Of a DNA stretch of 64,000 nucleotides, positions 2,479 to 55,739 are shown piece after piece. The DNA is from a virus. Position numbers and translations under genes: made by a program. Below the pieces are notes generated by a model, which was not told the origin of the DNA, searched no databases, and was given only the letters and a program-made list of their open reading frames with translations. Positions within the stretch are counted from its first letter, which is position 1; each line of letters begins with the position of its first letter. The stretch lies in IMG/VR virus record IMGVR_UViG_3300020048_000014, positions 1 to 64,000 of that record; one strand, 5' to 3'.

Positions 2479-3144
2479 ATGGTGGGTATAATGATGAAGA
2501 TGAATGTTGAACTAATGACCTACTTCGGGTCCGACTTAATGGTAGTAAATGTGGCAAAGGTTTCCTATAATAAGGAAAGTGAAGCAATGGGGAACAAAGA
2601 AGAGAGACTTCTCAAATACTTAGCGGATCATAAACATACCACACCGTTCAGACACCCACAATTACAATTCAGAATTGAATGCCCAATTTTTGTAGAACGT
2701 CAATTATTCACTCACCAAATTGGATGGGCTAGAAATAGTATCAGCGGAAGATATGTTGATTTTTCTGACTCATACTGGTATCCAGAAAAATTTCGATATC
2801 AATCGAAAGATAGTAAACAAGGGAGTTCTGGTGAATTATCAGATAAAGATAATGAATATTTTCGAGTAAAATACGCTGTTGTTTTAGAACAATGTAAGGC
2901 ATTATATACAGAGATGGCAGAGTTTGGAATAGCGAAAGAGTTATGTCGAGCACACCTACCACTGGCTCTTGAAACTAAGTTTATCTGGACTGGTAGTTTT
3001 CACGCATTTACCCATCTATGTAATCTGAGAATTAAGCCAGAAGCTCAAAAAGAAACTAGAGATCTGGTGGCAGGAATGTTACAAGCTGTAAAAGATATAC
3101 CGGAAAATCCTTTCAAATATTCCCTAGAAGCATTTAAATTATGA
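2479..3144 (+). CDS. thyX: FAD-dependent thymidylate synthase (true start probably a later Met)
   Basis: HTTPFRH, CPIFVERQL, variant ThyX motif FTHQ...NSISGRY, ELCRAHLP. Confidence 0.9.
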   Translation: MVGIMMKMNVELMTYFGSDLMVVNVAKVSYNKESEAMGNKEERLLKYLADHKHTTPFRHPQLQFRIECPIFVERQLFTHQIGWARNSISGRYVDFSDSYWYPEKFRYQSKDSKQGSSGELSDKDNEYFRVKYAVVLEQCKALYTEMAEFGIAKELCRAHLPLALETKFIWTGSFHAFTHLCNLRIKPEAQKETRDLVAGMLQAVKDIPENPFKYSLEAFKL

Positions 3145-14368: not shown

Positions 14369-15913
14369 TCAATCTTCTTGAACAGTGGAACCCCTACGGG
14401 TTGGAATATCAGTAACTTTAACCATCTTTTTAAGGGCGCGGGTTACCGATACATACAACAAATTTTGTTCCTGTTGTTTTTGATCATCAGTGATTGCATA
14501 CTTACTAGGCACAAGTTGATCATTACCAATGAGATAAGTATTGTCAAACTCCAGCCCCTTCGACTTATGAATCGAAGAAAGAACAACTAGATCAGCATTC
14601 TTAGGATCACCATTATCAGTGAACATTGCTTCGATCAGACTCTTGAGAGATTGAACATCATTCTTACCAAGTGATTGGCAACGTTCGATAAGGATGATCA
14701 TAGTCTCAAGCTTATCTTCCAGCATCTGCATCTTAGCCTTAGAAGCTTTCTCAAACTCTTTATTAAAGAATGCACTGAGCCTTTCAGTGAACTCATTAAG
14801 ATCACTAACTTTCTTCCACTTATTACAGAGAGTGATAAGATTCTGACCAATATCACGACCTTCGATCCGGCAACCTACACCTTTACGAATAAGAGCAAAG
14901 GCAAGTGCAACATTAGGTGCATTATTACGGCAGATAATACCATCCTTAGAAGTAAGATTCATAGTCTCAATTTGATTGAGGAAATCATCATACTTAATGG
15001 ATAGGATTTCACCGTCAGGATTACCCTCAAAAGCTTCGATATGAGGTTGATACTTTTGAGCTTCTTCAACAATCTTCTTACCGCAACGATAACATACAGA
15101 TAGAGGAAGTTCGACACAATCAAACATCTGCTTGATAAGATTCATCGAATCATTCTCAGCACCAGTGAATCCATAGATTGCTTGATTCTCATCACCGATT
15201 GCAATCATACGACCAGTGTCCTTGAGAACTTTAGCAATGAAAAGCTTTCGGGATACATTAGTATCTTGAGCCTCATCAACGATAACCCAATCATATTGGA
15301 CACAATTGGTATCATAAATAAGATTAAGATAAATCATATCTGCGAAATCGATATTACGGAAATCCCGATTGGATTCTTTCAGGACTTGCTTGGCGATATC
15401 GATAACATCATAGAAGTCAACATCAGCATCAAGACTAATATCTTGAGTTTGAATGATTTCCATCCATGCTTCATTATCATCGATGGAACTTTGACCCTTA
15501 ACTCCAATTGCATATTCCTTAGCAAAGCCAACAAGATTTTGAATGAAAGGACGGGCAGCATTCAATTCTTTAGTCTGGCAATACTTTTCAACAATGAAAA
15601 AGATCTTAGAATTGTCAACCTTAACCTTACCCTTCGACTTGATAAGATTCTTCATTCCTTCACTGTGGAAAGTAGCAGCACGGGCATTAGGAAGTCCCAT
15701 GGATGCAAGTTTTCTTTCAAGATGGACTTGAATCTTCTTATTAAAAGAGAAGAAAATAACATCACCAACCATATAAGTTGCGGACTGAAGCGCGGTAGTA
15801 GATTTACCAGATCCGGCGCAAGCTTTTACAATAAGATTCCTTGCAGATACATGGAAGTTTTGTGGATTAAGAACCCAGTCGAAAATGTCAGCTTGATACT
15901 TTGAATATTCCAT
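14369..15913 (-). CDS. UvrD/Rep-like SF1 helicase
   Basis: ACAGSGKST, DEAQD, GDENQAIYGFTGA, SIHKSKGLEFD, YVSVTRA. Confidence 0.92.
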   Translation of the reverse strand: MEYSKYQADIFDWVLNPQNFHVSARNLIVKACAGSGKSTTALQSATYMVGDVIFFSFNKKIQVHLERKLASMGLPNARAATFHSEGMKNLIKSKGKVKVDNSKIFFIVEKYCQTKELNAARPFIQNLVGFAKEYAIGVKGQSSIDDNEAWMEIIQTQDISLDADVDFYDVIDIAKQVLKESNRDFRNIDFADMIYLNLIYDTNCVQYDWVIVDEAQDTNVSRKLFIAKVLKDTGRMIAIGDENQAIYGFTGAENDSMNLIKQMFDCVELPLSVCYRCGKKIVEEAQKYQPHIEAFEGNPDGEILSIKYDDFLNQIETMNLTSKDGIICRNNAPNVALAFALIRKGVGCRIEGRDIGQNLITLCNKWKKVSDLNEFTERLSAFFNKEFEKASKAKMQMLEDKLETMIILIERCQSLGKNDVQSLKSLIEAMFTDNGDPKNADLVVLSSIHKSKGLEFDNTYLIGNDQLVPSKYAITDDQKQQEQNLLYVSVTRALKKMVKVTDIPTRRGSTVQED

Positions 15914-18683: not shown

Positions 18684-18758
18684 TGGTGGGCAGTGAGAGA
18701 ATCGAACTCTCATTGGAGGAGTAGAAATCCTCAGTCCTATCCATTAAACGAACCGCCC
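18684..18758 (-). tRNA. tRNA-Arg(TCT), CCA encoded
   Basis: Full cloverleaf; anticodon arm gagga-tttctac-tcctc. Confidence 0.92.
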
Positions 18759-19572: not shown

Positions 19573-20367
19573 ATGGCAAACAATATACCATACACTAAAG
19601 AAGAAATTGTCGAAGCGGTGAAAAAATCGAAGTCTTACTCTGATGTTTATAGACAATTAGGATTACAAATCAATGGTGGGTCATATAAATGGATGAAAAA
19701 ATTGATTGAAGATAATAATTTAGATATATCACATTTTATGACCAGTGAAGAAAGGATGCGAAGGATGACCGAATTGAGCAATAAGAGCAAAGGAGAGTCT
19801 TTATATTCGACGGATAATTTATCAAACGGTGAAAGACTCAGTAGCGGGAAATTACAGGGATTTTTGAAATTCAAAGGGATTGCGTATTTATGTAATTCAT
19901 GTGGTCTTGATAGATGGCTAGATAAGCCAATTAGATTGGATATAGATCACATAGATGGTGATTGTGCAAACAATCATATAAAAAACCTTCAATACATTTG
20001 TCCAAATTGTCATAGACAGAAAACTATTGAACTAGTGGAGACAAAAAATGGACTCAAAACCAAAGCAAAAATATGTAAAGAAAAACCATCAAAAACAAAT
20101 AAATGTGTTGATTGTGAAAATTTAATCAATATTAAAGCAACTAGATGTCTTTCGTGTAGCGGATCTAAAAGAATTAAAATAAATTACCCGTCTAAGGACA
20201 TATTATTGAGATTATTATGGGAAAAGCCGACATCATTAATAGCAAAGGATATAGGATGCAGTGATAAAGCAATTGAAAAATATGCAAAAAAATTAGGTTT
20301 ATCTAAACCAGATCGAGGATATTGGCAAAAACTAAAATATATTAATGGTTCGCGTGAGGATAATTGA
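19573..20367 (+). CDS. HNH homing endonuclease-like protein
   Basis: CNSCG...LDIDHIDGDCANNHIKNLQYICPNCH; Zn-finger and HTH-like C-terminus. Confidence 0.88.
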   Translation: MANNIPYTKEEIVEAVKKSKSYSDVYRQLGLQINGGSYKWMKKLIEDNNLDISHFMTSEERMRRMTELSNKSKGESLYSTDNLSNGERLSSGKLQGFLKFKGIAYLCNSCGLDRWLDKPIRLDIDHIDGDCANNHIKNLQYICPNCHRQKTIELVETKNGLKTKAKICKEKPSKTNKCVDCENLINIKATRCLSCSGSKRIKINYPSKDILLRLLWEKPTSLIAKDIGCSDKAIEKYAKKLGLSKPDRGYWQKLKYINGSREDN

Positions 20368-20449: not shown

Positions 20450-20559
20450 TGGTGGACCCGGTGGGTTACGATCCCACTTCCTGCCGTTTATTCTGCAATA
20501 TCTCAACTTAATGTGATACTGCTAAAGAGACGGCTGCTCGACCACTGAGCTTCAAGTCC
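20450..20559 (-). tRNA. tRNA-Lys(CTT) with 35-nt insertion in the anticodon loop (20490-20524)
   Basis: Acceptor, D and T arms intact; gccgt-CTCTT-[35 nt]-AA-acggc; CCA encoded. Confidence 0.78.
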
Positions 20560-20571
20560 TATATTATAAAG

Positions 20572-20684
20572 TGATCCGGGTGGAACTCGAATCCACAAAT
20601 TATTGATTTTCGAGGAAAGACTTATTTGATTTATAAATCTTCCCGGAGAAAGTCAATTGCCTATACCAATTCGGCTACCGGACC
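20572..20684 (-). tRNA. tRNA-Phe(GAA) or tRNA-Glu(TTC) with 39-nt insertion in the anticodon loop
   Basis: ggtccgg/ccggatc acceptor; attga-CT-[39 nt]-GAAAA-tcaat; no encoded CCA. Confidence 0.72.
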
Positions 20685-21064
20685 ATTAAATCTTACTTAG
20701 TCAACGACTTCCTCAATACCATTAGAATCAATCAACATTGATTCATATACTTGAGAATCATCATTGTAAAAGTCATAAGACATATCCTCAAACTTCTGTT
20801 GTGCTTCATCTGCCGAATTAGCATCGATGAAGACATCGATTGTCATTGTTACTTTGTATTGTGTCATGTTCGTATTCTATTATAGTGTTTTATCAATCAA
20901 AATTCCAATCTCAAGTCGCATTCTATCAAGTATATAATCAATGTCAATAGCATTATTCTCTAATGGAACATCGTCCATGTATTCTTGAATATCATCTTGA
21001 TATCCGATAATAATTTCTTCGATTTCTTTTTGGAGTTCTTGCTTGGTCATGTCCTTATTATAGA

Positions 21065-28936: not shown

Positions 28937-29710
28937 TTAAAAATTTGTTTGTTTGATATTATTTGGTGGTATATTTTTTGTAGTGAAAACCGCATTGTAA
29001 TTTTTACTTTTCGGAAACATCGGATCTCTGTATAATTCGTTAGGATGCTCAATTTCCAAAACCACCATATTCCTCGTAAAGAATTTTGAAAGATTTTTGA
29101 CTCCATTTGATTTAGCAGTCTCAATTTTAGAATTGCTTAATTGTTGCTTCAATCTATTTAAAATGGAAGCATCCTTCGTCTGAATCAGATAGATTCTACC
29201 TCCGGGATGTGAGAAAACTGTTGTAGATTCTCTAGGGGACAACCCAATCTTTTGTATTTTAGGTAAATAAAAATTATATGTTATATGATAGAAAGGTGCT
29301 ACCAACTTATCCTCATCCGATAAGAGTGTTGGATACTTTGGTTCAATCAGTAATTTATATTGATAAAAGGAATTCCTTGGAAGAGTCTGCCCTACAAAAT
29401 AACCATATGTGCTCAGTTGTTTATTCAACCTTTCGACGAATGGCTCGATACTAGAACTCTCTTCAACAAATTCTACATATATATCAATTGTTTGAAGATC
29501 ACCGATCTTAGAGAATGTTATATCGAATTCCCGACTTTTGATATTTTGTAAGAATTTTATTACATTCTCTCTAGGATAAGATGTGATTAATCCTTCGTTT
29601 ATCTCATGAGTCCAACAACTTTCACCAAACTTACCGAATATTGAATAATCTTCTGGAATATATTCAAATAAATTAAGGTAGTAATTAAATGCTTTGTCAA
29701 ATTTACTCAT
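28937..29710 (-). CDS. Protein with an ADP-ribosyltransferase/Tpt1-like C-terminal domain
   Basis: FYHIT...IQKIGLSP...GGRIYL pattern. Confidence 0.5.
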   Translation of the reverse strand: MSKFDKAFNYYLNLFEYIPEDYSIFGKFGESCWTHEINEGLITSYPRENVIKFLQNIKSREFDITFSKIGDLQTIDIYVEFVEESSSIEPFVERLNKQLSTYGYFVGQTLPRNSFYQYKLLIEPKYPTLLSDEDKLVAPFYHITYNFYLPKIQKIGLSPRESTTVFSHPGGRIYLIQTKDASILNRLKQQLSNSKIETAKSNGVKNLSKFFTRNMVVLEIEHPNELYRDPMFPKSKNYNAVFTTKNIPPNNIKQTNF

Positions 29711-29728
29711 GATAATTATTTAATCTGA

Positions 29729-29878
29729 TTAAATGGGTGGGAATCGAACCCACGATTAACAGCTATTGACCATTTCAGGAATATTGATTCAAAGGTAACG
29801 TTCCCTATGATTCAATATTTAATCCTTCCCGCATTTTTCGAATTAATGCAACCTCGTAACCACAGAGGATTCCACTCA
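29729..29878 (-). ncRNA. tRNA-like element with a very long extra arm (Ser(CGA)-like loop)
   Basis: Acceptor tgagtgg/ccattta, perfect T arm gtggg-ttcgatt-cccac, internal long hairpin aatattga...tcaatatt. Confidence 0.5.
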
Positions 29879-29885
29879 AAACTAT

Positions 29886-30218
29886 TTACAAATTCACACC
29901 TTCGAATCCCAAATGCCCAGCGAGTGCGATATCTTCATAATCGAGATCTTTAAAATATTTTACTGCTCGATTTTGAAGATTCTCAAATGCATCCAACACA
30001 ACCTGCTCACGATCTTTGACTGCTGGAAGATTATATTGATCAGACATTGCACGATTGACCGCAATGGCAGTCCCAATCTTTTTATTCCACTTATCAGCCT
30101 TTGGATTGATAAGACTGAAACCATAATTGATCTTATCATCAGTCTTGACTGCTACGGCGATGCCGCGAGGTTGTTTAGTTTCTGGATCTCTAATATATTT
30201 TTTAATGATGGTTTTCAT
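29886..30218 (-). CDS. Hypothetical protein
   Basis: 110-aa ATG ORF, motif upstream. Confidence 0.8.
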   Translation of the reverse strand: MKTIIKKYIRDPETKQPRGIAVAVKTDDKINYGFSLINPKADKWNKKIGTAIAVNRAMSDQYNLPAVKDREQVVLDAFENLQNRAVKYFKDLDYEDIALAGHLGFEGVNL

Positions 30219-41477: not shown

Positions 41478-42560
41478 TTATAAATTACTTTCGATACCAG
41501 TTTTGATTACTTTATCCTCCAATACTTTATTGTCCAAGATAGTAAAGGCGGCACCTTTTCTCCAATCAGGAAAATGTTGAACAATTTCCATGGCTTGATC
41601 CTTTCGGGTGAATGAATCTCCTCGCACATTATGCACTACTAGACGCACTTTGTCAAGTTGTTCTAAAGTTTTATTATAAGCATTGACAATTTTAAGCATG
41701 TCATCCTTTAGTCTTTCGGCAACTTCGAAATCTATTGCAACTTCGATGTATTTATAGAAATCCTCATACTTGGTGAATCGTTCAGTAGTCATGAATAGAT
41801 CAACAACTTGATTGATATTCTTGATACCAGTGCAAATTTTATGCAATTCACAATATTCACTGGCTTTTATCTTCTTCAAGGTTTGACCATCTGGCGAATA
41901 TAGAACAACGCCTTCCTTACCTCTCCAAGCAGCAACGTCATTGAGACATTCTTCGATGGAATCATACTCATACTTTTGAGGACGCTTAAAACCATATTGT
42001 CTACCTATTACATCCAAATAATTTTGGGGATAATATGAACAATCAGCATTTGAAACCGCACCCACTAAGATCAAATCAGGTTCATTAGATTCTCTCAATA
42101 CTATGATATTGTTGGGAGTGACCCACTCAAACAACCAAGTTACCCCAACTGCTTCAGAAAAATCTTTTTGTTCATTGAAAAAATATATATACTTCAATAG
42201 TAAAGTATCGATTTCATGACCATTAGCCATTTGACGAGCATCAGTAGTTCCACGGGTTCTACAAATCCATGAACCCTTATATCTTGATACAATCAATAAC
42301 GATCCATCCAACTTATGACGAGCATCGATCTTCCACGACTTATCCCAAGGTTGAAAATCGGGTTGTTCACTGAAATTAGTAAACTTTAAAAATCCTTGTG
42401 ATACCACAAAATTATCAGACTTACGGAGAATACAAGAACGGAATCTTGCATTTTCATCATTCCACTTACATCCGACATGATTCGGAGTGATAAGCCAGCA
42501 ATCATCTCCTGCGATAACGCAGTCTTTGAAAGTGAATTCTTCAGTCGTTGGTAGCTTCAT
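41478..42560 (-). CDS. T4 Rnl1-like RNA ligase
   Basis: KFTNFSE, KLDGSL (motif I), FEWV, EGVV, KIKASEY. Confidence 0.82.
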   Translation of the reverse strand: MKLPTTEEFTFKDCVIAGDDCWLITPNHVGCKWNDENARFRSCILRKSDNFVVSQGFLKFTNFSEQPDFQPWDKSWKIDARHKLDGSLLIVSRYKGSWICRTRGTTDARQMANGHEIDTLLLKYIYFFNEQKDFSEAVGVTWLFEWVTPNNIIVLRESNEPDLILVGAVSNADCSYYPQNYLDVIGRQYGFKRPQKYEYDSIEECLNDVAAWRGKEGVVLYSPDGQTLKKIKASEYCELHKICTGIKNINQVVDLFMTTERFTKYEDFYKYIEVAIDFEVAERLKDDMLKIVNAYNKTLEQLDKVRLVVHNVRGDSFTRKDQAMEIVQHFPDWRKGAAFTILDNKVLEDKVIKTGIESNL

Positions 42561-43242
42561 ACTCAGAATTATGGTTTAGTGTTTTATCAAGCAAAACCAC
42601 TGTCTTCTTATCAATTTCGTAATATACTTGAGTATTTTCATTCACGAAACGATCCCATGCATCTTGCAAATATTCTGGAATTTCTGGAACATCCGCATAC
42701 TCATCTTCATTAATCTCTCCCAATCTTTCCAAGTAATCCTTAATCATGATTTCTAGTTGACAACTTTTTAGTGTATGTTTTTTAGTTGAACCATATACAT
42801 AATCTGGGAGAGGATAATCATAATCCCAATTATCCCTCAAGTCATCGATGGCATAATAGAAAGTATCACCTTCGATGATAGGATCGCTGTAGTCGGCTTC
42901 TTCTACCTTTATAGCACTATCATAGATGCGCTTATCTCTAGCTTCACAATAAGCATGCATAGCCTTGGAATTACACATCTTAATCTCATCTTCAGTTAGA
43001 TACTTTTCGAGAACTTGTTTTTGGATGGATTCCATCATATATTCAGTGACTTTATCTTTATCTCCAACATTGAAACATTGCTCTGTTTCTGAATTCATGA
43101 TGAGAGATTTAAATGTCTTCCCGGTATCTAATACAGGATTGATCCAGTTATTCAAAACCTTGAGAATTTCTGCCCATCTTTCTTCTGTGAATAGTGGTTG
43201 AAAATATTCTAAAGGATAATTTGTTAGTTGTATATAATTCAT
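42541..43242 (-). CDS. Hypothetical protein
   Basis: 233-aa ORF between ligase and kinase. Confidence 0.8.
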   Translation of the reverse strand: MNYIQLTNYPLEYFQPLFTEERWAEILKVLNNWINPVLDTGKTFKSLIMNSETEQCFNVGDKDKVTEYMMESIQKQVLEKYLTEDEIKMCNSKAMHAYCEARDKRIYDSAIKVEEADYSDPIIEGDTFYYAIDDLRDNWDYDYPLPDYVYGSTKKHTLKSCQLEIMIKDYLERLGEINEDEYADVPEIPEYLQDAWDRFVNENTQVYYEIDKKTVVLLDKTLNHNSEYEATND

Positions 43243-43643
43243 AGTAGTTTTAAATTTTCTCTGATTGTTTTCTCCTGTCTTTGGAGAGTTTCTAATGGCA
43301 CGTTGTGTACATTTTTCCCATCATGTCTGTTCTCTAACACGATAAATGTTACAATGAATCCGACAGCCTTTGCTGTATCGACATACCTCTTCCAGTCTTG
43401 CTCTTTGGCATTAACATTAGCAATGATGATATCTCTATCGGTGAGTGTCAACGCATCTACAAACTTGTTCCAACAATAGCCATGAGCCTTACTCAAACCT
43501 GCTGAATACCAATTATAATTACCATCCTTGTCAGTAAAGTAATCATCGGCGCAGCATACTGCCGCATCTGGAAATAGATTACAAAATGTGGATTTTCCAG
43601 ATCCAGAGCAACCTTTTAATATCAAGAGATGACGTTGTTTCAT
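43239..43643 (-). CDS. P-loop polynucleotide-kinase-like protein (AAA_33 type)
   Basis: GCSGSGKST, ADDYF, HNVP. Confidence 0.8.
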   Translation of the reverse strand: MKQRHLLILKGCSGSGKSTFCNLFPDAAVCCADDYFTDKDGNYNWYSAGLSKAHGYCWNKFVDALTLTDRDIIIANVNAKEQDWKRYVDTAKAVGFIVTFIVLENRHDGKNVHNVPLETLQRQEKTIRENLKLL

Positions 43644-46905: not shown

Positions 46906-48297
46906 TTAACTTTCTTCTTCCATGTCAGATTCTCCAGCATCCCTAGCTTTACATTCTGCTAAATTGAATTTCGGACTCTTAAATTTAAGAACTGGCTTAG
47001 TTTCCTTAGAATTGATTTTCAAAACAATACCTTCGTTGACGACACCCGTTTTGCAGAGTTCGCATGTTTTATCAAGATACTTTTCATGTAACTTGTGAAG
47101 AAAGTTCTCTCCAAATGAACTATCTAGGGGAATTTCAGGGAATAAATCCGTTACCTTTCCTTTGTAGTATACCGGGACATGTTTTAAACCATGATCTTCA
47201 CAGAATCCTTCAATTTCATTCCAAGAAAATTCAGTCACTTTTCCTTCTTCATTGGTGTGTGTGACTCTATAAACCCAAAATTCTGATTCGCCTTGAGTTA
47301 TCCCATAATCATAATTCTTCTGGATATTCCTATTAGGGGAGGCCCACCCTAAAATTTCTCCATATACTGAAATTCCTTTAGGGATATTACCATCCAATTC
47401 TTTAGCGTGTTTACCCCAAACGTCTTCACTATATGTCCCATCACGTTTATTTTTGATGATCGAACGACTGGAATATACAAAGAGATAATCAATCGCTGGA
47501 ATGTCAAACCCAATCATTTTTTTAAACATTGAAAATAATGACAACGATTTCTTGCACAGCAGATTAGCAAAAATTGCCGATGTTCCATGAATTTTGTTAG
47601 AGATTGTGATATTATCATTTGGATCGACGATAAAAATATTACGACCAAGTTGTTCAGTTTTCCCGTGGAAATACCACTGACCGTCAACAATTTGAGATTT
47701 GATACCCTCAGATTTAATAGCACCGTAATACCATTTGACGACAGGATAGATAGCCAATCTAATTGGTCTAGGAAGGCTACCAATGCTCTTGGATACCCAT
47801 TTAGGGATCTTGGGTTGTTTGCTATTCGGATCACCTTGAACTTTTGTATCTGGTCGGATATACTTCGTTACAAGAAGGTCATCACCAACTGTATCAAAAT
47901 TTTCCCCGACATGGAAGATATCATCCTTTAAGTCATAATATCTAATAAGTTCTGAAACTTTAAATAAAAATCCCTGAGACGGAACACCACGTAAATTAAT
48001 TGCCTTAACTCTTCGTCCTTTAGAAGAGAAGTAAGATTTTGTTACACCATCAGCATTCAACACGGGATCATTAAAAAGATTTGCCCATGACAAGAATTTG
48101 GCGGATAAACAAGACTCAATAGGGAAATACGCCAACTTATCATTTTGGGAATATACTCCTTTCCCGACAATAATACTATTTCCAAAAATTTCAACGATTT
48201 CTAATCTGTCAGCAGATGGATGAGTTTTAATTTCTGGACACTTGATTACGACTGCTGCGTAATTTGGGTCACAATTTTCACTTATGCTCAATTTCAT
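46906..48297 (-). CDS. Second RNA ligase-like protein (Rnl2/DRB0094 type, N-terminal OB-like domain)
   Basis: HPSADRLE, KIHGTS, GEILG, EGIV, KFKS. Confidence 0.78.
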   Translation of the reverse strand: MKLSISENCDPNYAAVVIKCPEIKTHPSADRLEIVEIFGNSIIVGKGVYSQNDKLAYFPIESCLSAKFLSWANLFNDPVLNADGVTKSYFSSKGRRVKAINLRGVPSQGFLFKVSELIRYYDLKDDIFHVGENFDTVGDDLLVTKYIRPDTKVQGDPNSKQPKIPKWVSKSIGSLPRPIRLAIYPVVKWYYGAIKSEGIKSQIVDGQWYFHGKTEQLGRNIFIVDPNDNITISNKIHGTSAIFANLLCKKSLSLFSMFKKMIGFDIPAIDYLFVYSSRSIIKNKRDGTYSEDVWGKHAKELDGNIPKGISVYGEILGWASPNRNIQKNYDYGITQGESEFWVYRVTHTNEEGKVTEFSWNEIEGFCEDHGLKHVPVYYKGKVTDLFPEIPLDSSFGENFLHKLHEKYLDKTCELCKTGVVNEGIVLKINSKETKPVLKFKSPKFNLAECKARDAGESDMEEES

Positions 48298-52814: not shown

Positions 52815-53366
52815 TTATTCTTCTTCATGTTCAAATGCTATTTCTATTTTTTTAATTAATTCTTCTAGTGTGATATCAAGACCTTCTTGAAAATATCGCA
52901 CATCAAAATTATTAACTTGGACTAGTTTCTCTGGGGCCAATCCATACAAAAAATTAACTTTATTATTAATTCCAGATCTATGAAATGAATAGTTTTCATT
53001 ATCGACTAATACACAATTCTTGTCTCTAAATCTTGGAACGGTATAGTTTATATCCTCGCGTGTAAATGTATTACTTGGAGGAATTCCTATATTGAGTAAA
53101 TTCGCAGATCTTAAAACGTAATCACATGATCCCCATGATAAAATACACACATTATCCAGTCCAAGAGTCATCTGGAAATATTTGATTAGTTCTTTCGACC
53201 AAGATCTAATAAATGACACATACCAACTGTCATTGGGTAATTGAAATTTTACACCGTGCCAATACTCGCCATATCTATCTATGAGTTCATCTGCATGTTT
53301 TTCGTTGGTCGCATATAAAGATGAACATAAAGTTTCATCATAATCTAATACTAGTATGTTGCTCAT
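52815..53366 (-). CDS. HAD-superfamily (NIF/FCP1-like) phosphatase
   Basis: LVLDYDETL, LVDNE. Confidence 0.72.
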   Translation of the reverse strand: MSNILVLDYDETLCSSLYATNEKHADELIDRYGEYWHGVKFQLPNDSWYVSFIRSWSKELIKYFQMTLGLDNVCILSWGSCDYVLRSANLLNIGIPPSNTFTREDINYTVPRFRDKNCVLVDNENYSFHRSGINNKVNFLYGLAPEKLVQVNNFDVRYFQEGLDITLEELIKKIEIAFEHEEE

Positions 53367-54091
53367 AATTTATATTCAATGTTTGCGTCAAATTCAAATA
53401 GCTCATTGATATCCAAACATCTATAATAGATATTATTTTCTTCTTGTCGAATTGCATTGTGATAGTGACCGCTGAAAATTGTTTTGACCCCTGAATCCTT
53501 TACGATATTGCTCATATTAATTCTTTGAGAATTGCAATCTTCTATCAGAAGTGGGTCTTTTTCGATAGCCCATTGAAATCTTTCTCCGAGAGAATTTGTC
53601 GAATGATTAAAATATTCAGGACAATCATGTGAAAACATAATATCACATTTCTCTAAATGTTGTAAAGTGGGTGTCGGTTCCTCGACCCAATAATCTACAC
53701 CATTTGTTCGCATACACCTATCAACACTTATACCACCCCCGACAAATAAAACTTTTTTATTGTTTGGAAAAATTCCAATATCACCAGACTGAATCAAAAA
53801 CACATTCGAATAACTTTGGGGAAGTCTCCAAACATCTGGATTATCGTGGTTTCCCGGTGCCAGATAACAGTTAATATTATTTTTTTTACATAGATTATTG
53901 ATACGAGAGAGCCAAGATTTGGCGTTGTCTATGGAATATGATGGATTACCAAATCCCCACCCACCGTCCCCGATTTGATAATAATCATTTCCTTCAGGAA
54001 TTTTTTCATTCAAGGTATGATATATTACAGAGATATCGTGAGTGTCTCCTTGAAGTATTATTGTGTTTTTTCTAAAATTATATTTTCTCAT
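53363..54091 (-). CDS. Calcineurin-like metallophosphoesterase (start revised)
   Basis: GDTH, GD, GNHDN, SHDCP, GHYH. Confidence 0.85.
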   Translation of the reverse strand: MRKYNFRKNTIILQGDTHDISVIYHTLNEKIPEGNDYYQIGDGGWGFGNPSYSIDNAKSWLSRINNLCKKNNINCYLAPGNHDNPDVWRLPQSYSNVFLIQSGDIGIFPNNKKVLFVGGGISVDRCMRTNGVDYWVEEPTPTLQHLEKCDIMFSHDCPEYFNHSTNSLGERFQWAIEKDPLLIEDCNSQRINMSNIVKDSGVKTIFSGHYHNAIRQEENNIYYRCLDINELFEFDANIEYKL

Positions 54092-54131
54092 ATATGAATT
54101 GTATTTCGTGGTCTTCACGATAAATAATACC

Positions 54132-54959
54132 ATGAATATAGATATAAATCAAGCTGATAGTTGTTATTTATTGGGATATTTTTGGGCTGATTGCTTTTTC
54201 GGTGCAACCAATATAGAAAAGGATTATTATAATTTTTCATTTGAAATAAAAACTTCAGATTTTATTCAAATATGGCCTATGTTACAACATATGGGATTTG
54301 AAAAATACAGCACCCGTAAAAGAAAAAATTCTAAAAATTCTCAATCGTGTGTTCGTCTCTACCAGAGAGAACAATTATCTTTTTTTAAAACTTATAATTT
54401 TCACAAAAAATACGATGAATGTACATTATATTTTTCTTTAACCGATGAAATGAAAATTTATTTTGTTAAGGGATTTCTGGACGGGGATGGTAGTATTTCC
54501 ATAGATAAAAATGGTTTATTTAGAATAGGTTTCAATGGTCCTTATCATCAAAACTGGAACTTTCTTGAACATTTTTGTAATACATATAACATAAAATATG
54601 TGATATATAGAAAGGAGAGAGTTTCACGCCACGAAACCCATGTTAAAAATATTCATAAATATTCAGTATTCGAATTTACCAATAGAGAAAATAGATTAAA
54701 TTTTTGTGAAATATTTAAAGATATAAATATTGGATTAACTAGAAAATTTAAAGTTTTTGAGAATTATAAAAACTGGCTAAGTTCTAATCAAAAACCATCT
54801 AGAATAATTTCCACTGGGATTTCTATAAATCCAAAATATAATACTTTTATAGTGTATTCAATCACATCGCCGCAAACTCCTAGAACGTATATAGGCACAT
54901 TCAAAACTCTAGAGGAGGCTATTACTGCTCAGAATAATTTCAATATTCAATTTCCATAG
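54132..54959 (+). CDS. Double-motif LAGLIDADG homing endonuclease-like protein (start revised)
   Basis: YLLGYFWADC and FVKGFLDGDGSI; TAAATA upstream. Confidence 0.8.
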   Translation: MNIDINQADSCYLLGYFWADCFFGATNIEKDYYNFSFEIKTSDFIQIWPMLQHMGFEKYSTRKRKNSKNSQSCVRLYQREQLSFFKTYNFHKKYDECTLYFSLTDEMKIYFVKGFLDGDGSISIDKNGLFRIGFNGPYHQNWNFLEHFCNTYNIKYVIYRKERVSRHETHVKNIHKYSVFEFTNRENRLNFCEIFKDINIGLTRKFKVFENYKNWLSSNQKPSRIISTGISINPKYNTFIVYSITSPQTPRTYIGTFKTLEEAITAQNNFNIQFP

Positions 54960-55133: not shown

Positions 55134-55739
55134 TTAGTGTTTAATCAATGGTCGAGCACTCTCGAATATCCCCTTAATTATGGGTCTAGCGATCCCATTT
55201 GCACTATGAACGTAATACGTGGGTAGAGGGTGCTGAAACTCCTTACAACGCTCACATAACCATGCTGCACAATGCGCCCCAGTTTTGATTGAAGAGTTTT
55301 CCCAATCAATCATCTGAAACATTTTTCGGACATCTTCTTCTGGGACGTTACTACATTCTGGAATCCACAAATCATTATCGAATGATACTACTTGTGGAAT
55401 TCCATGAGTTTCGACATAAGTCACGAATTCATCATACGATCTTACTATATCCCATTTAAAATTAGCGATGCCAGAAACTTGTTGAAGAGTTTTATTTTCA
55501 TCCCAAATGAAAGCATGTTGCGGGATTCGGTCATCATCAAGGAAGAGAGATCGTTGAGGTTTATGATTATCCGCCTCTACATTTTCGATTACCGATGAAA
55601 AATCATTTGAAAATTTTGTATATGAATCATACTTTTTATTTTTCATATTATCCCATAATGGGCTATTTCTATACGCTGAATGATCAGATATTCGGCAATC
55701 CGATCCTTTGCCCCCGTGCCATTGTTTAGGTTTCGCCAT
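55134..55739 (-). CDS. Receiver-like (cyclic-phosphate processing) domain protein
   Basis: LFLDDDR.P, SFDNDL, TG...A.WL, VHSAN. Confidence 0.7.
   Translation of the reverse strand: MAKPKQWHGGKGSDCRISDHSAYRNSPLWDNMKNKKYDSYTKFSNDFSSVIENVEADNHKPQRSLFLDDDRIPQHAFIWDENKTLQQVSGIANFKWDIVRSYDEFVTYVETHGIPQVVSFDNDLWIPECSNVPEEDVRKMFQMIDWENSSIKTGAHCAAWLCERCKEFQHPLPTYYVHSANGIARPIIKGIFESARPLIKH

Follow-up and report, generated by a model that had tools for sequence, protein, structure and literature searches.

Two adjacent tRNA genes in the first 64 kb (the stretch analysed, here called the window) of a 196,721-bp IMG/VR record from an aquatic, uncultured phage (96% complete, 35% G+C) are interrupted in the anticodon loop by hairpins of 39 and 35 nt. 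The two inserts are members of one family of ORF-less hairpin mini-introns, and comparison with uninterrupted orthologues puts them between anticodon nucleotides 34 and 35. We put the probability at about 55% that these inserts are introns removed by proteins, in that a nuclease would cut the precursor and phage ligases would reseal the exons. Protein-spliced introns had already been considered in the original prediction, and this idea is still the best reading, but the cut sites and tRNA identities first proposed with it had to be given up.

Both genes (gene A, also tRNA-A or W_A, and gene B, also tRNA-B or W_B) reside on the minus strand at 20684-20572 and 20559-20450, respectively, and are arranged in tandem, head to tail, with a gap of 12 nt. 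The tandem is preceded by a small ORF and by a sigma-70-like promoter match, the number of such matches in this region being no higher than in shuffled sequences. A BLAST search of the locus against GenBank phages gave no match. The locus comprises the following features:

20650-20684, minus strand: 5' exon of tRNA-A, 35 nt, ending with ...CUU (nt 34), as defined by orthologue comparison
20611-20649, minus strand: insert of tRNA-A, 39 nt, located between nt 34 and 35 and forming a hairpin of 12 bp with a 7-nt loop (hairpin from the predicted fold, site from the orthologue loops CTTAAAA)
20572-20610, minus strand: 3' exon of tRNA-A, 39 nt, starting with AAAA and ending with the discriminator A, CCA not encoded
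20527-20559, minus strand: 5' exon of tRNA-B, 33 nt, ending with ...CUC (nt 34)
20492-20526, minus strand: insert of tRNA-B, 35 nt, composed of 3 bp, a 1x1 mismatch, 8 bp, an A.A mismatch, 2 bp and a loop, with an invariant apical motif
20450-20491, minus strand: 3' exon of tRNA-B, 42 nt, starting with AUAA, CCA encoded (intron-less L160 and L161 have the loop CTCATAA)
18684-18758, minus strand: uninterrupted tRNA-Arg(UCU), a member of the same small tRNA cluster
19573-20367, plus strand: free-standing HNH homing endonuclease gene (phrog_10822, E 4.6e-41), convergent with the tRNAs and 83 bp from tRNA-B
20920-20947, minus strand: sigma-70-like promoter match (11/12, with TG extension, consensus match only), about 235 nt upstream of tRNA-A

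Over the whole window (1-64000), Pfam matches to Kyano_Gp96, rIIA/rIIB, ThyX, five YopX genes and a PRPP-synthetase/NAPRTase pair were also noted. Relatives of the phage were found in lake and ocean metagenomes, while cultured phages exhibited less than 40% identity in the helicase.

The existence of two neighbouring tRNA genes with anticodon-loop hairpins of 35 and 39 nt was borne out by their scores against the Rfam tRNA family RF00005 and by RNAfold. Gene A was matched at 20684-20572 with 50.4 bits and gene B at 20559-20453 with 39.0 bits (threshold 29), with 42 nt and 39 nt, respectively, looped out of the anticodon loop. RNAfold predicted for each gene a cloverleaf whose anticodon arm is lengthened by the hairpin (z = -5.1 for gene A and -4.3 for gene B), and none of 200 shuffles folded as well. 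The UUUC/GAAA pairing noted at the outset for the gene A precursor was present in the predicted fold. ARAGORN called gene A in its intron mode only, with a 39-nt intron, and missed gene B, so that the intron-mode check proposed at the outset succeeded for just one of the two genes. Both genes were accepted by the program once the insert had been deleted in silico.

By sequence alone, the anticodons of both genes are ambiguous. Depending on the cut site, gene A may yield GAA, UAA, UUA or UUC; for gene B, the options are AAU, CAU and CUU. Relatives were gathered via the nearby UvrD-type helicase gene, the unusual D arm of tRNA-Arg(UCU) and the D arms of genes A and B. Among 81 matches to the D-arm pattern of type-I tRNA(UAA), 63 had an uninterrupted anticodon arm, and those examined were tRNA(UAA). 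The joined exons of gene A were 80-86% identical to the intron-less tRNA(UAA) genes of L047, L059, L060 and L074, with which they have the D arm and the 5-nt variable loop in common; the orthologue loop reads CTTAAAA. For gene B, the comparison involved two groups of insert-bearing genes. The insert-bearing tRNA of G002, whose 35-nt insert is 71% identical to that of gene B and whose exons differ, showed 81% identity to the uninterrupted gene L033:4404-4477 (loop CTCATAA), and the two are positional orthologues residing at an equal distance from the helicase gene. The insert-bearing genes of L051, L056 and L066, which have the odd A8-A9 and the D loop in common with gene B, were 86% identical to uninterrupted genes in L160 and L161, again with the loop CTCATAA.

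Only excision between nucleotides 34 and 35 recreates these orthologue loops. Thus, on the evidence of the orthologues, gene A is CUU, 39 nt, AAAA, i.e., tRNA(UAA), nominally Leu, and gene B is CUC, 35 nt, AUAA, i.e., tRNA(CAU) for Met, or for Ile2 after lysidine formation. Cuts after nt 33 (GAA or AAU), after nt 35 (UUA or CUU) and after nt 36 (UUC or CUU) disagree with the orthologue loops and were rejected. The intron-less orthologues therefore contradict the assignments of gene B to tRNA-Lys(CTT) and of gene A to Phe(GAA) or Glu(TTC) made in the original prediction. As neither gene is a tRNA-Lys, the specific connection to PrrC, which targets tRNA-Lys, falls away as well. In the phage, UUA makes up 39% of the Leu codons and is the most used of them, AUA accounts for 32% of Ile and AGA for 51% of Arg. 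With the anticodons deduced here, genes A and B and tRNA-Arg(UCU) would read the abundant UUA, AUA or AUG, and AGA codons.

Some further tRNA-related observations were made on the same contigs. A 210-aa ORF with an SGGVDS PP-loop motif (TilS/QueC-like) lies between tRNA genes at L018:7813-8445 on the plus strand (G001 127813-128445) and has a homologue at L034:2907-3536; its motif hints at a phage-encoded lysidine-type modifier of tRNA(CAU). A tRNA with a long variable arm (type II, Leu-like) and a CAU anticodon is located at L034:1965-2056. Amber-suppressor tRNA(CUA) genes were detected at G000:193136-193210 (outside the window), in G002 (15673-15745), in G003 (2757-2830) and in L158 and L159; in the last two, the suppressor shares its unusual body, with A8-A9 and the D arm, with the CAU tRNAs to which gene B belongs. 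TAG is the stop codon of only 21 of the 273 long ORFs in the phage genome.

To find further inserts, a scanner was applied that deletes any stretch of 12-90 nt enclosed by a 5-bp stem and hands the remainder to ARAGORN. It was run on about 1.7 Mb of related DNA and recovered both window genes; its extra matches were mostly chimeras of neighbouring tRNAs and were discarded. Altogether, there are eight insert-bearing genes, two in the window and six elsewhere, in related and more distant aquatic phage contigs. Their inserts measure 33-44 nt and occupy four different tRNA bodies. The UAA type comprises W_A, the type-II tRNA-Leu(UAA) genes of G001 (38 nt) and G003 (44 nt) and the type-I tRNA(UAA) of L090 (35 nt). 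To the CAU type belong W_B, G002 (35 nt), L051 and L056, the latter being identical to L066 (33 nt in all three). Every insert of the family starts with U-Y-U. Of the 81 matches obtained with the D-arm pattern of type-I tRNA(UAA), only one contained an insert, as did three of five CAU-anticodon matches of a smaller scan for the D arm of gene B. An exact-pattern scan for the CAU-type hairpin disclosed G002 only.

Other irregular elements turned up in these contigs. In L046 (about 2646-2775, minus strand), a probable tRNA-Thr(UGU) is interrupted at the same position of the loop by 46 nt of AU-rich sequence that form a weak hairpin; an intron-less orthologue of this candidate was not found. A conserved tRNA-like element with a Leu-like D arm, in which a 39-49-nt insert replaces the anticodon arm, is situated just upstream of the helicase gene (L009:9609-9731 in G001 and L037:3894-4015), and ARAGORN anticodon calls for it disagree. 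The conserved tRNA-like gene at L049:4293-4398, also found in L063, L073 and L079, has a 7-bp anticodon stem and a 23-nt loop and is not of the hairpin-intron type. In L124 (minus strand, near 1274), the 5' half of a type-I tRNA(UAA) directly runs into an ORF start and is a truncated tRNA fragment.

The CAU-type arms follow one plan, consisting of a 5-bp stem, a 3x3 loop, 3 bp, a 1x1 mismatch, 8 bp, an A.A mismatch, 2 bp and a loop. In the four distinct sequences all 18 pairs are 100% paired, and nine of the 18 have changed on both sides. This covariation score was reached by none of 500 shuffles, and slid controls gave values near zero. The apical part UCAC.../...UGAGA is invariant. Since the hairpin of L090, which resides in a UAA tRNA, exhibits the same order of 8 bp, A.A and 2 bp, the UAA and CAU groups are linked. 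The survey of relatives for insert presence and covariation that had been recommended at the start thus revealed eight genes with a patchy distribution among orthologues and a strongly covarying hairpin.

The patchiness, together with the use of the same site in non-orthologous tRNA genes, could also be explained by an unspliced selfish or protective DNA insert, either a small palindromic element or one destroying the target of a homing endonuclease within the conserved DNA of the anticodon loop, in tRNA genes that are dead or dying. Homing endonuclease genes do lie beside several insert-bearing genes, i.e., the HNH gene in the window and GIY-YIG genes in L051, L056 and L066. Sense and antisense folds of the inserts are about equally stable, so that fold energies do not distinguish selection on the RNA from selection on a DNA hairpin. 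Yet the exons of the insert-bearing genes are still perfect cloverleaves above the Rfam threshold, across lineages whose helicases are only 50-87% identical, and neutral decay would keep neither the compensatory changes nor the invariant apical motif. Target-site duplications were not present in the sequences at the insert boundaries, and the tRNA(UAA) gene would serve the phage's top Leu codon. Moreover, the same GIY-YIG family adjoins uninterrupted tRNAs too; a specific partnership of HNH or GIY-YIG enzymes with the inserts was therefore rejected and no such link is claimed. Taken together, we regard a DNA insert of this kind as unlikely.

A functional RNA that is never spliced and, with its masked arm, either lures away host nucleases directed against tRNAs (a decoy or sponge) or carries aminoacyl groups independently of the anticodon seems rather improbable to us. 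In the predicted fold, nt 33-37 are indeed buried in a helix by the hairpin, the phage invests heavily in countermeasures against RNA damage, and LeuRS does not read the anticodon (textbook knowledge). The charging of CAU tRNAs, by contrast, depends on the anticodon (likewise textbook knowledge), and most orthologues do without the insert. In every case, deletion of the insert restores an exact 7-nt loop with U33, A37 and the anticodon of the orthologue, none of which a decoy needs. Masking and decoy ideas also fit poorly with exons forming perfect cloverleaves and with anticodons matching the most-used rare-type codons of the phage. The intact exons, the exact restoration of the canonical loop and the covarying hairpin with its invariant tip argue for selection on a processed, working tRNA, and a protein-dependent intron is therefore the best explanation.

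On the protein-dependent reading, genes A and B would give precursor transcripts in which the hairpin lengthens the anticodon arm. This arm comprises approximately 15-17 stacked layers from the splice-site pair to the conserved apical motif. A protein endonuclease, probably phage-encoded, would make two cuts, one at Y34|U, on the 5' side of the first intron base, and the other on the 5' side of A35. Because the first intron base pairs with A35 in the predicted fold, both cuts would be placed 5' of the two bases of one pair. RNA-repair enzymes of the phage (kinase, phosphoesterases and an Rnl1-like ligase) would then heal and seal the exons, giving tRNA(UAA) and tRNA(CAU). A more far-reaching version, which we hold only tentatively and at somewhat less than even odds, is that the hairpins belong, as introns, to a hitherto undescribed tRNA-splicing pathway of the bacterial world, in which a dedicated phage or host nuclease recognizes the arm, cuts 5' of both bases of the pair formed by the first intron base and A35, and leaves resealing to an Rnl1-type enzyme, the introns having spread among unrelated tRNA genes at 34|35.

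Established modes of excision did not account for the inserts. With 35 and 39 nt, they offer no room for a group I core (about 200 nt or more), and at E<=0.1 no Rfam family besides tRNA was found; the view that they are far too short for group I or group II introns was thereby upheld. The classical group I intron Leu.3Ug of bacterial and plastid tRNA-Leu(UAA) is inserted at CUU/.../AAAA (bioRxiv 10.1101/2020.01.27.920355), and the UAA-type inserts occupy the same phosphodiester of the same tRNA as this cyanobacterial intron, which would be consistent with a relic hairpin left after deletion of the ribozyme core. W_A and G001 even have U at -1 and a final intron G. However, these two features are not combined in G003 and L090, which end in C or A, or in any CAU-type member, the latter having C at -1 and a site 3 that is not a classical fMet or Ile2 site. 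The 33-44 nt of the family are too few for a group I core, no Rfam group I match was obtained, and a dead relic would not show covariation. Such an origin is hardly to be expected.

A bulge-helix-bulge intron was defined by two 3-nt bulges with a 4-bp helix between them and splice sites in the bulges. The folds of genes A and B have a different geometry, with a 1x1 or 3x3 internal loop, 3-4 bp and a second internal loop, and the cut sites deduced from the orthologues are located on the 5' side of each partner of a single base pair, so that this intron class was discarded, in agreement with the earlier remark that no clear bulge-helix-bulge was seen. In the phage genome (96% complete), no match was found to EndA (PF01974) at E<=1, to RtcB or to Tpt1 (Pfam PF01885), and two Pfam batch scans covering 85 window ORFs revealed no RNase families. 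Cleavage by RNase III leaves a 2-nt 3' overhang. The cuts proposed here would give a 1-nt 5' stagger, and excision by RNase III was rejected.

Finally, tRNA end-processing was considered, in which the hairpin would resemble the upper half of a tRNA and be excised by RNase P and RNase Z before ligation of the exons. The W_A hairpin (12 bp and a 7-nt loop) is sized like an acceptor/T minihelix, and in the CAU type there are 12 stacked layers from the first intron base, where a cut by RNase P would produce the 5' boundary. Nevertheless, the 12-bp helix of W_A leaves out 5 nt of the insert on the 5' side and 3 nt on the 3' side, RNase Z-type cleavage of W_B would take away the first two bases of the 3' exon, and the inserts have neither a T-loop consensus nor a CCA tail. 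The boundaries defined by the orthologues do not coincide with the helix ends, and we consider excision by these two enzymes very unlikely.

The protein-dependent reading calls for end-healing and sealing activities, for which the window contains a number of candidates:

41478-42560, minus strand: T4 RnlA (Rnl1)-like RNA ligase, the candidate sealing enzyme (phrog_562, E 2.3e-36; TIGR02308, E 8e-12)
43239-43643, minus strand: small P-loop kinase, 134 aa (AAA_33, E 4e-5; weak match to the kinase part of Pnkp)
46906-48297, minus strand: second ATP-dependent RNA ligase (PF09414 and OB domain)
28937-29710, minus strand: distant Tpt1/KptA-like protein (RNA 2'-phosphotransferase fold), 257 aa (AF2 model, Foldseek, profile search)
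55134-55739, minus strand: protein with cREC (cyclic-phosphate processing receiver) domain (PF20274, E 1.4e-16)
53363-54133, minus strand: calcineurin-like phosphoesterase (Metallophos; PF00149, E 3e-11)

The Rnl1-like ligase is a distant member, as its TIGR02308 match lies below the curated cut-off. Genes for a histidine phosphatase and PTH2 also belong to the repair set of the window, which is unusually complete. Of the Pnkp-type activities, the kinase exists only as the 134-aa P-loop protein, and the histidine phosphatase, Metallophos and cREC proteins are encoded by separate genes. The AF2 model of the Tpt1/KptA-like protein had a pLDDT of 78.7, and its top Foldseek PDB matches were all KptA/Tpt1 (E 2e-4, TM about 0.36). 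The protein gave no Pfam match, and a profile search against PDB sequences returned only Tpt1, weakly (E 0.019). The motif YH(I/G)T...GL.P is conserved and aligns, while the Arg-His-Arg-Arg tetrad was not evident among the invariant columns. Directly upstream of this gene (29711-29890, minus strand) we noticed a tRNA-like element with a perfect T arm (GTGGG TTCGATT CCCAC) and a long insert, which was called by neither ARAGORN nor Rfam. An ORF of 233 aa at 42541-43242 had no family match.

Conserved counterparts of the two ligases, the kinase and the histidine phosphatase occur in G001 and G003, both of which possess an interrupted tRNA-Leu. Searches for ligases and RtcB in the five other insert-bearing contigs gave no match and are uninformative, these contigs being at most 48% complete. 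In G001, which is the closest relative, the Rnl1-like ligase gene itself is split by about 1.35 kb between residues 86/87 (101556-101813 and 103164-103988, L017), which may be due to an intron, an intein or an endonuclease insertion. It should be borne in mind that T4-like phages carry RNA-repair kits against host anticodon nucleases. Since the kits also serve this purpose, their presence is no proof of splicing.

Apart from self-splicing ones, tRNA introns are not known from bacteria or their viruses, and the splicing of tRNAs by enzymes is generally taken to be characteristic of archaea and eukaryotes. Conserved, covarying and non-catalytic tRNA introns in phages would imply a novel bacterial or phage splicing endonuclease working with the well-known phage RNA ligases, and if the ligases serve splicing, the so-called repair enzymes would have a housekeeping role. 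Alternatively, they would show selfish DNA persisting within essential genes in a novel manner. Annotation is affected too, because standard bacterial tRNA finders miss such genes and a wrong cut site leads to a wrong amino acid.

A functional parallel is provided by T4, where the host enzyme PrrC cuts a tRNA in the anticodon loop and Pnkp and Rnl1 of the phage reseal it. By analogy, the Rnl1-like ligase and the end-healing enzymes of our phage could rejoin a broken loop; unlike T4 repair, which deals with one nick in a host tRNA, two cuts freeing an intron from phage tRNAs would be needed here. The EndA/TSEN introns of archaea and eukaryotes are likewise short and non-catalytic and extend the anticodon stem, and genes for Trl1-, Rnl1- and Tpt1-like enzymes of end healing and sealing lie near our tRNA genes as well. 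In contrast to those introns, the family described here lacks a bulge-helix-bulge, its site is 34|35 instead of 37|38 and the phage has no EndA homologue; we know of no EndA homologue in bacteria. Free-standing HNH and GIY-YIG endonuclease genes beside interrupted tRNA genes recall SegB of T4 and 'collaborative homing', except that the same endonuclease family here also flanks uninterrupted tRNAs. With the Leu.3Ug group I intron, the UAA-type inserts have the host tRNA loop and the insertion point in common, whereas the family described here has no catalytic core, cannot self-splice and also occupies CUC|AUAA of CAU tRNAs.

The only published phage case of short non-catalytic tRNA inserts that we found are the 'enigmatic' tRNA introns of Lak megaphages, and this kind of insert is barely described in print. 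The Lak introns, 79-114 nt in length, are predicted to adjoin nt 37 and include a tRNA-like arm whose T loop is of the GGTTCGAATCC type (Devoto et al. 2019, PMC6784885, Table S6). Like the window inserts, they are ORF-less, reside in anticodon loops of phage tRNAs, are patchily distributed among close relatives and have no Rfam match. The present family differs from them in that it consists of plain hairpins of 33-44 nt, located at 34|35, and occurs in aquatic phages sized about 140-200 kb. The Lak-type layout of a tRNA top half (12 bp and T loop, CCA end, boundaries at the helix ends) is not seen in W_A, and that of W_B is different. What is new here is thus a plain-hairpin variant with boundaries fixed by orthologues, covariation within the hairpin and boundaries that do not match its helix ends.
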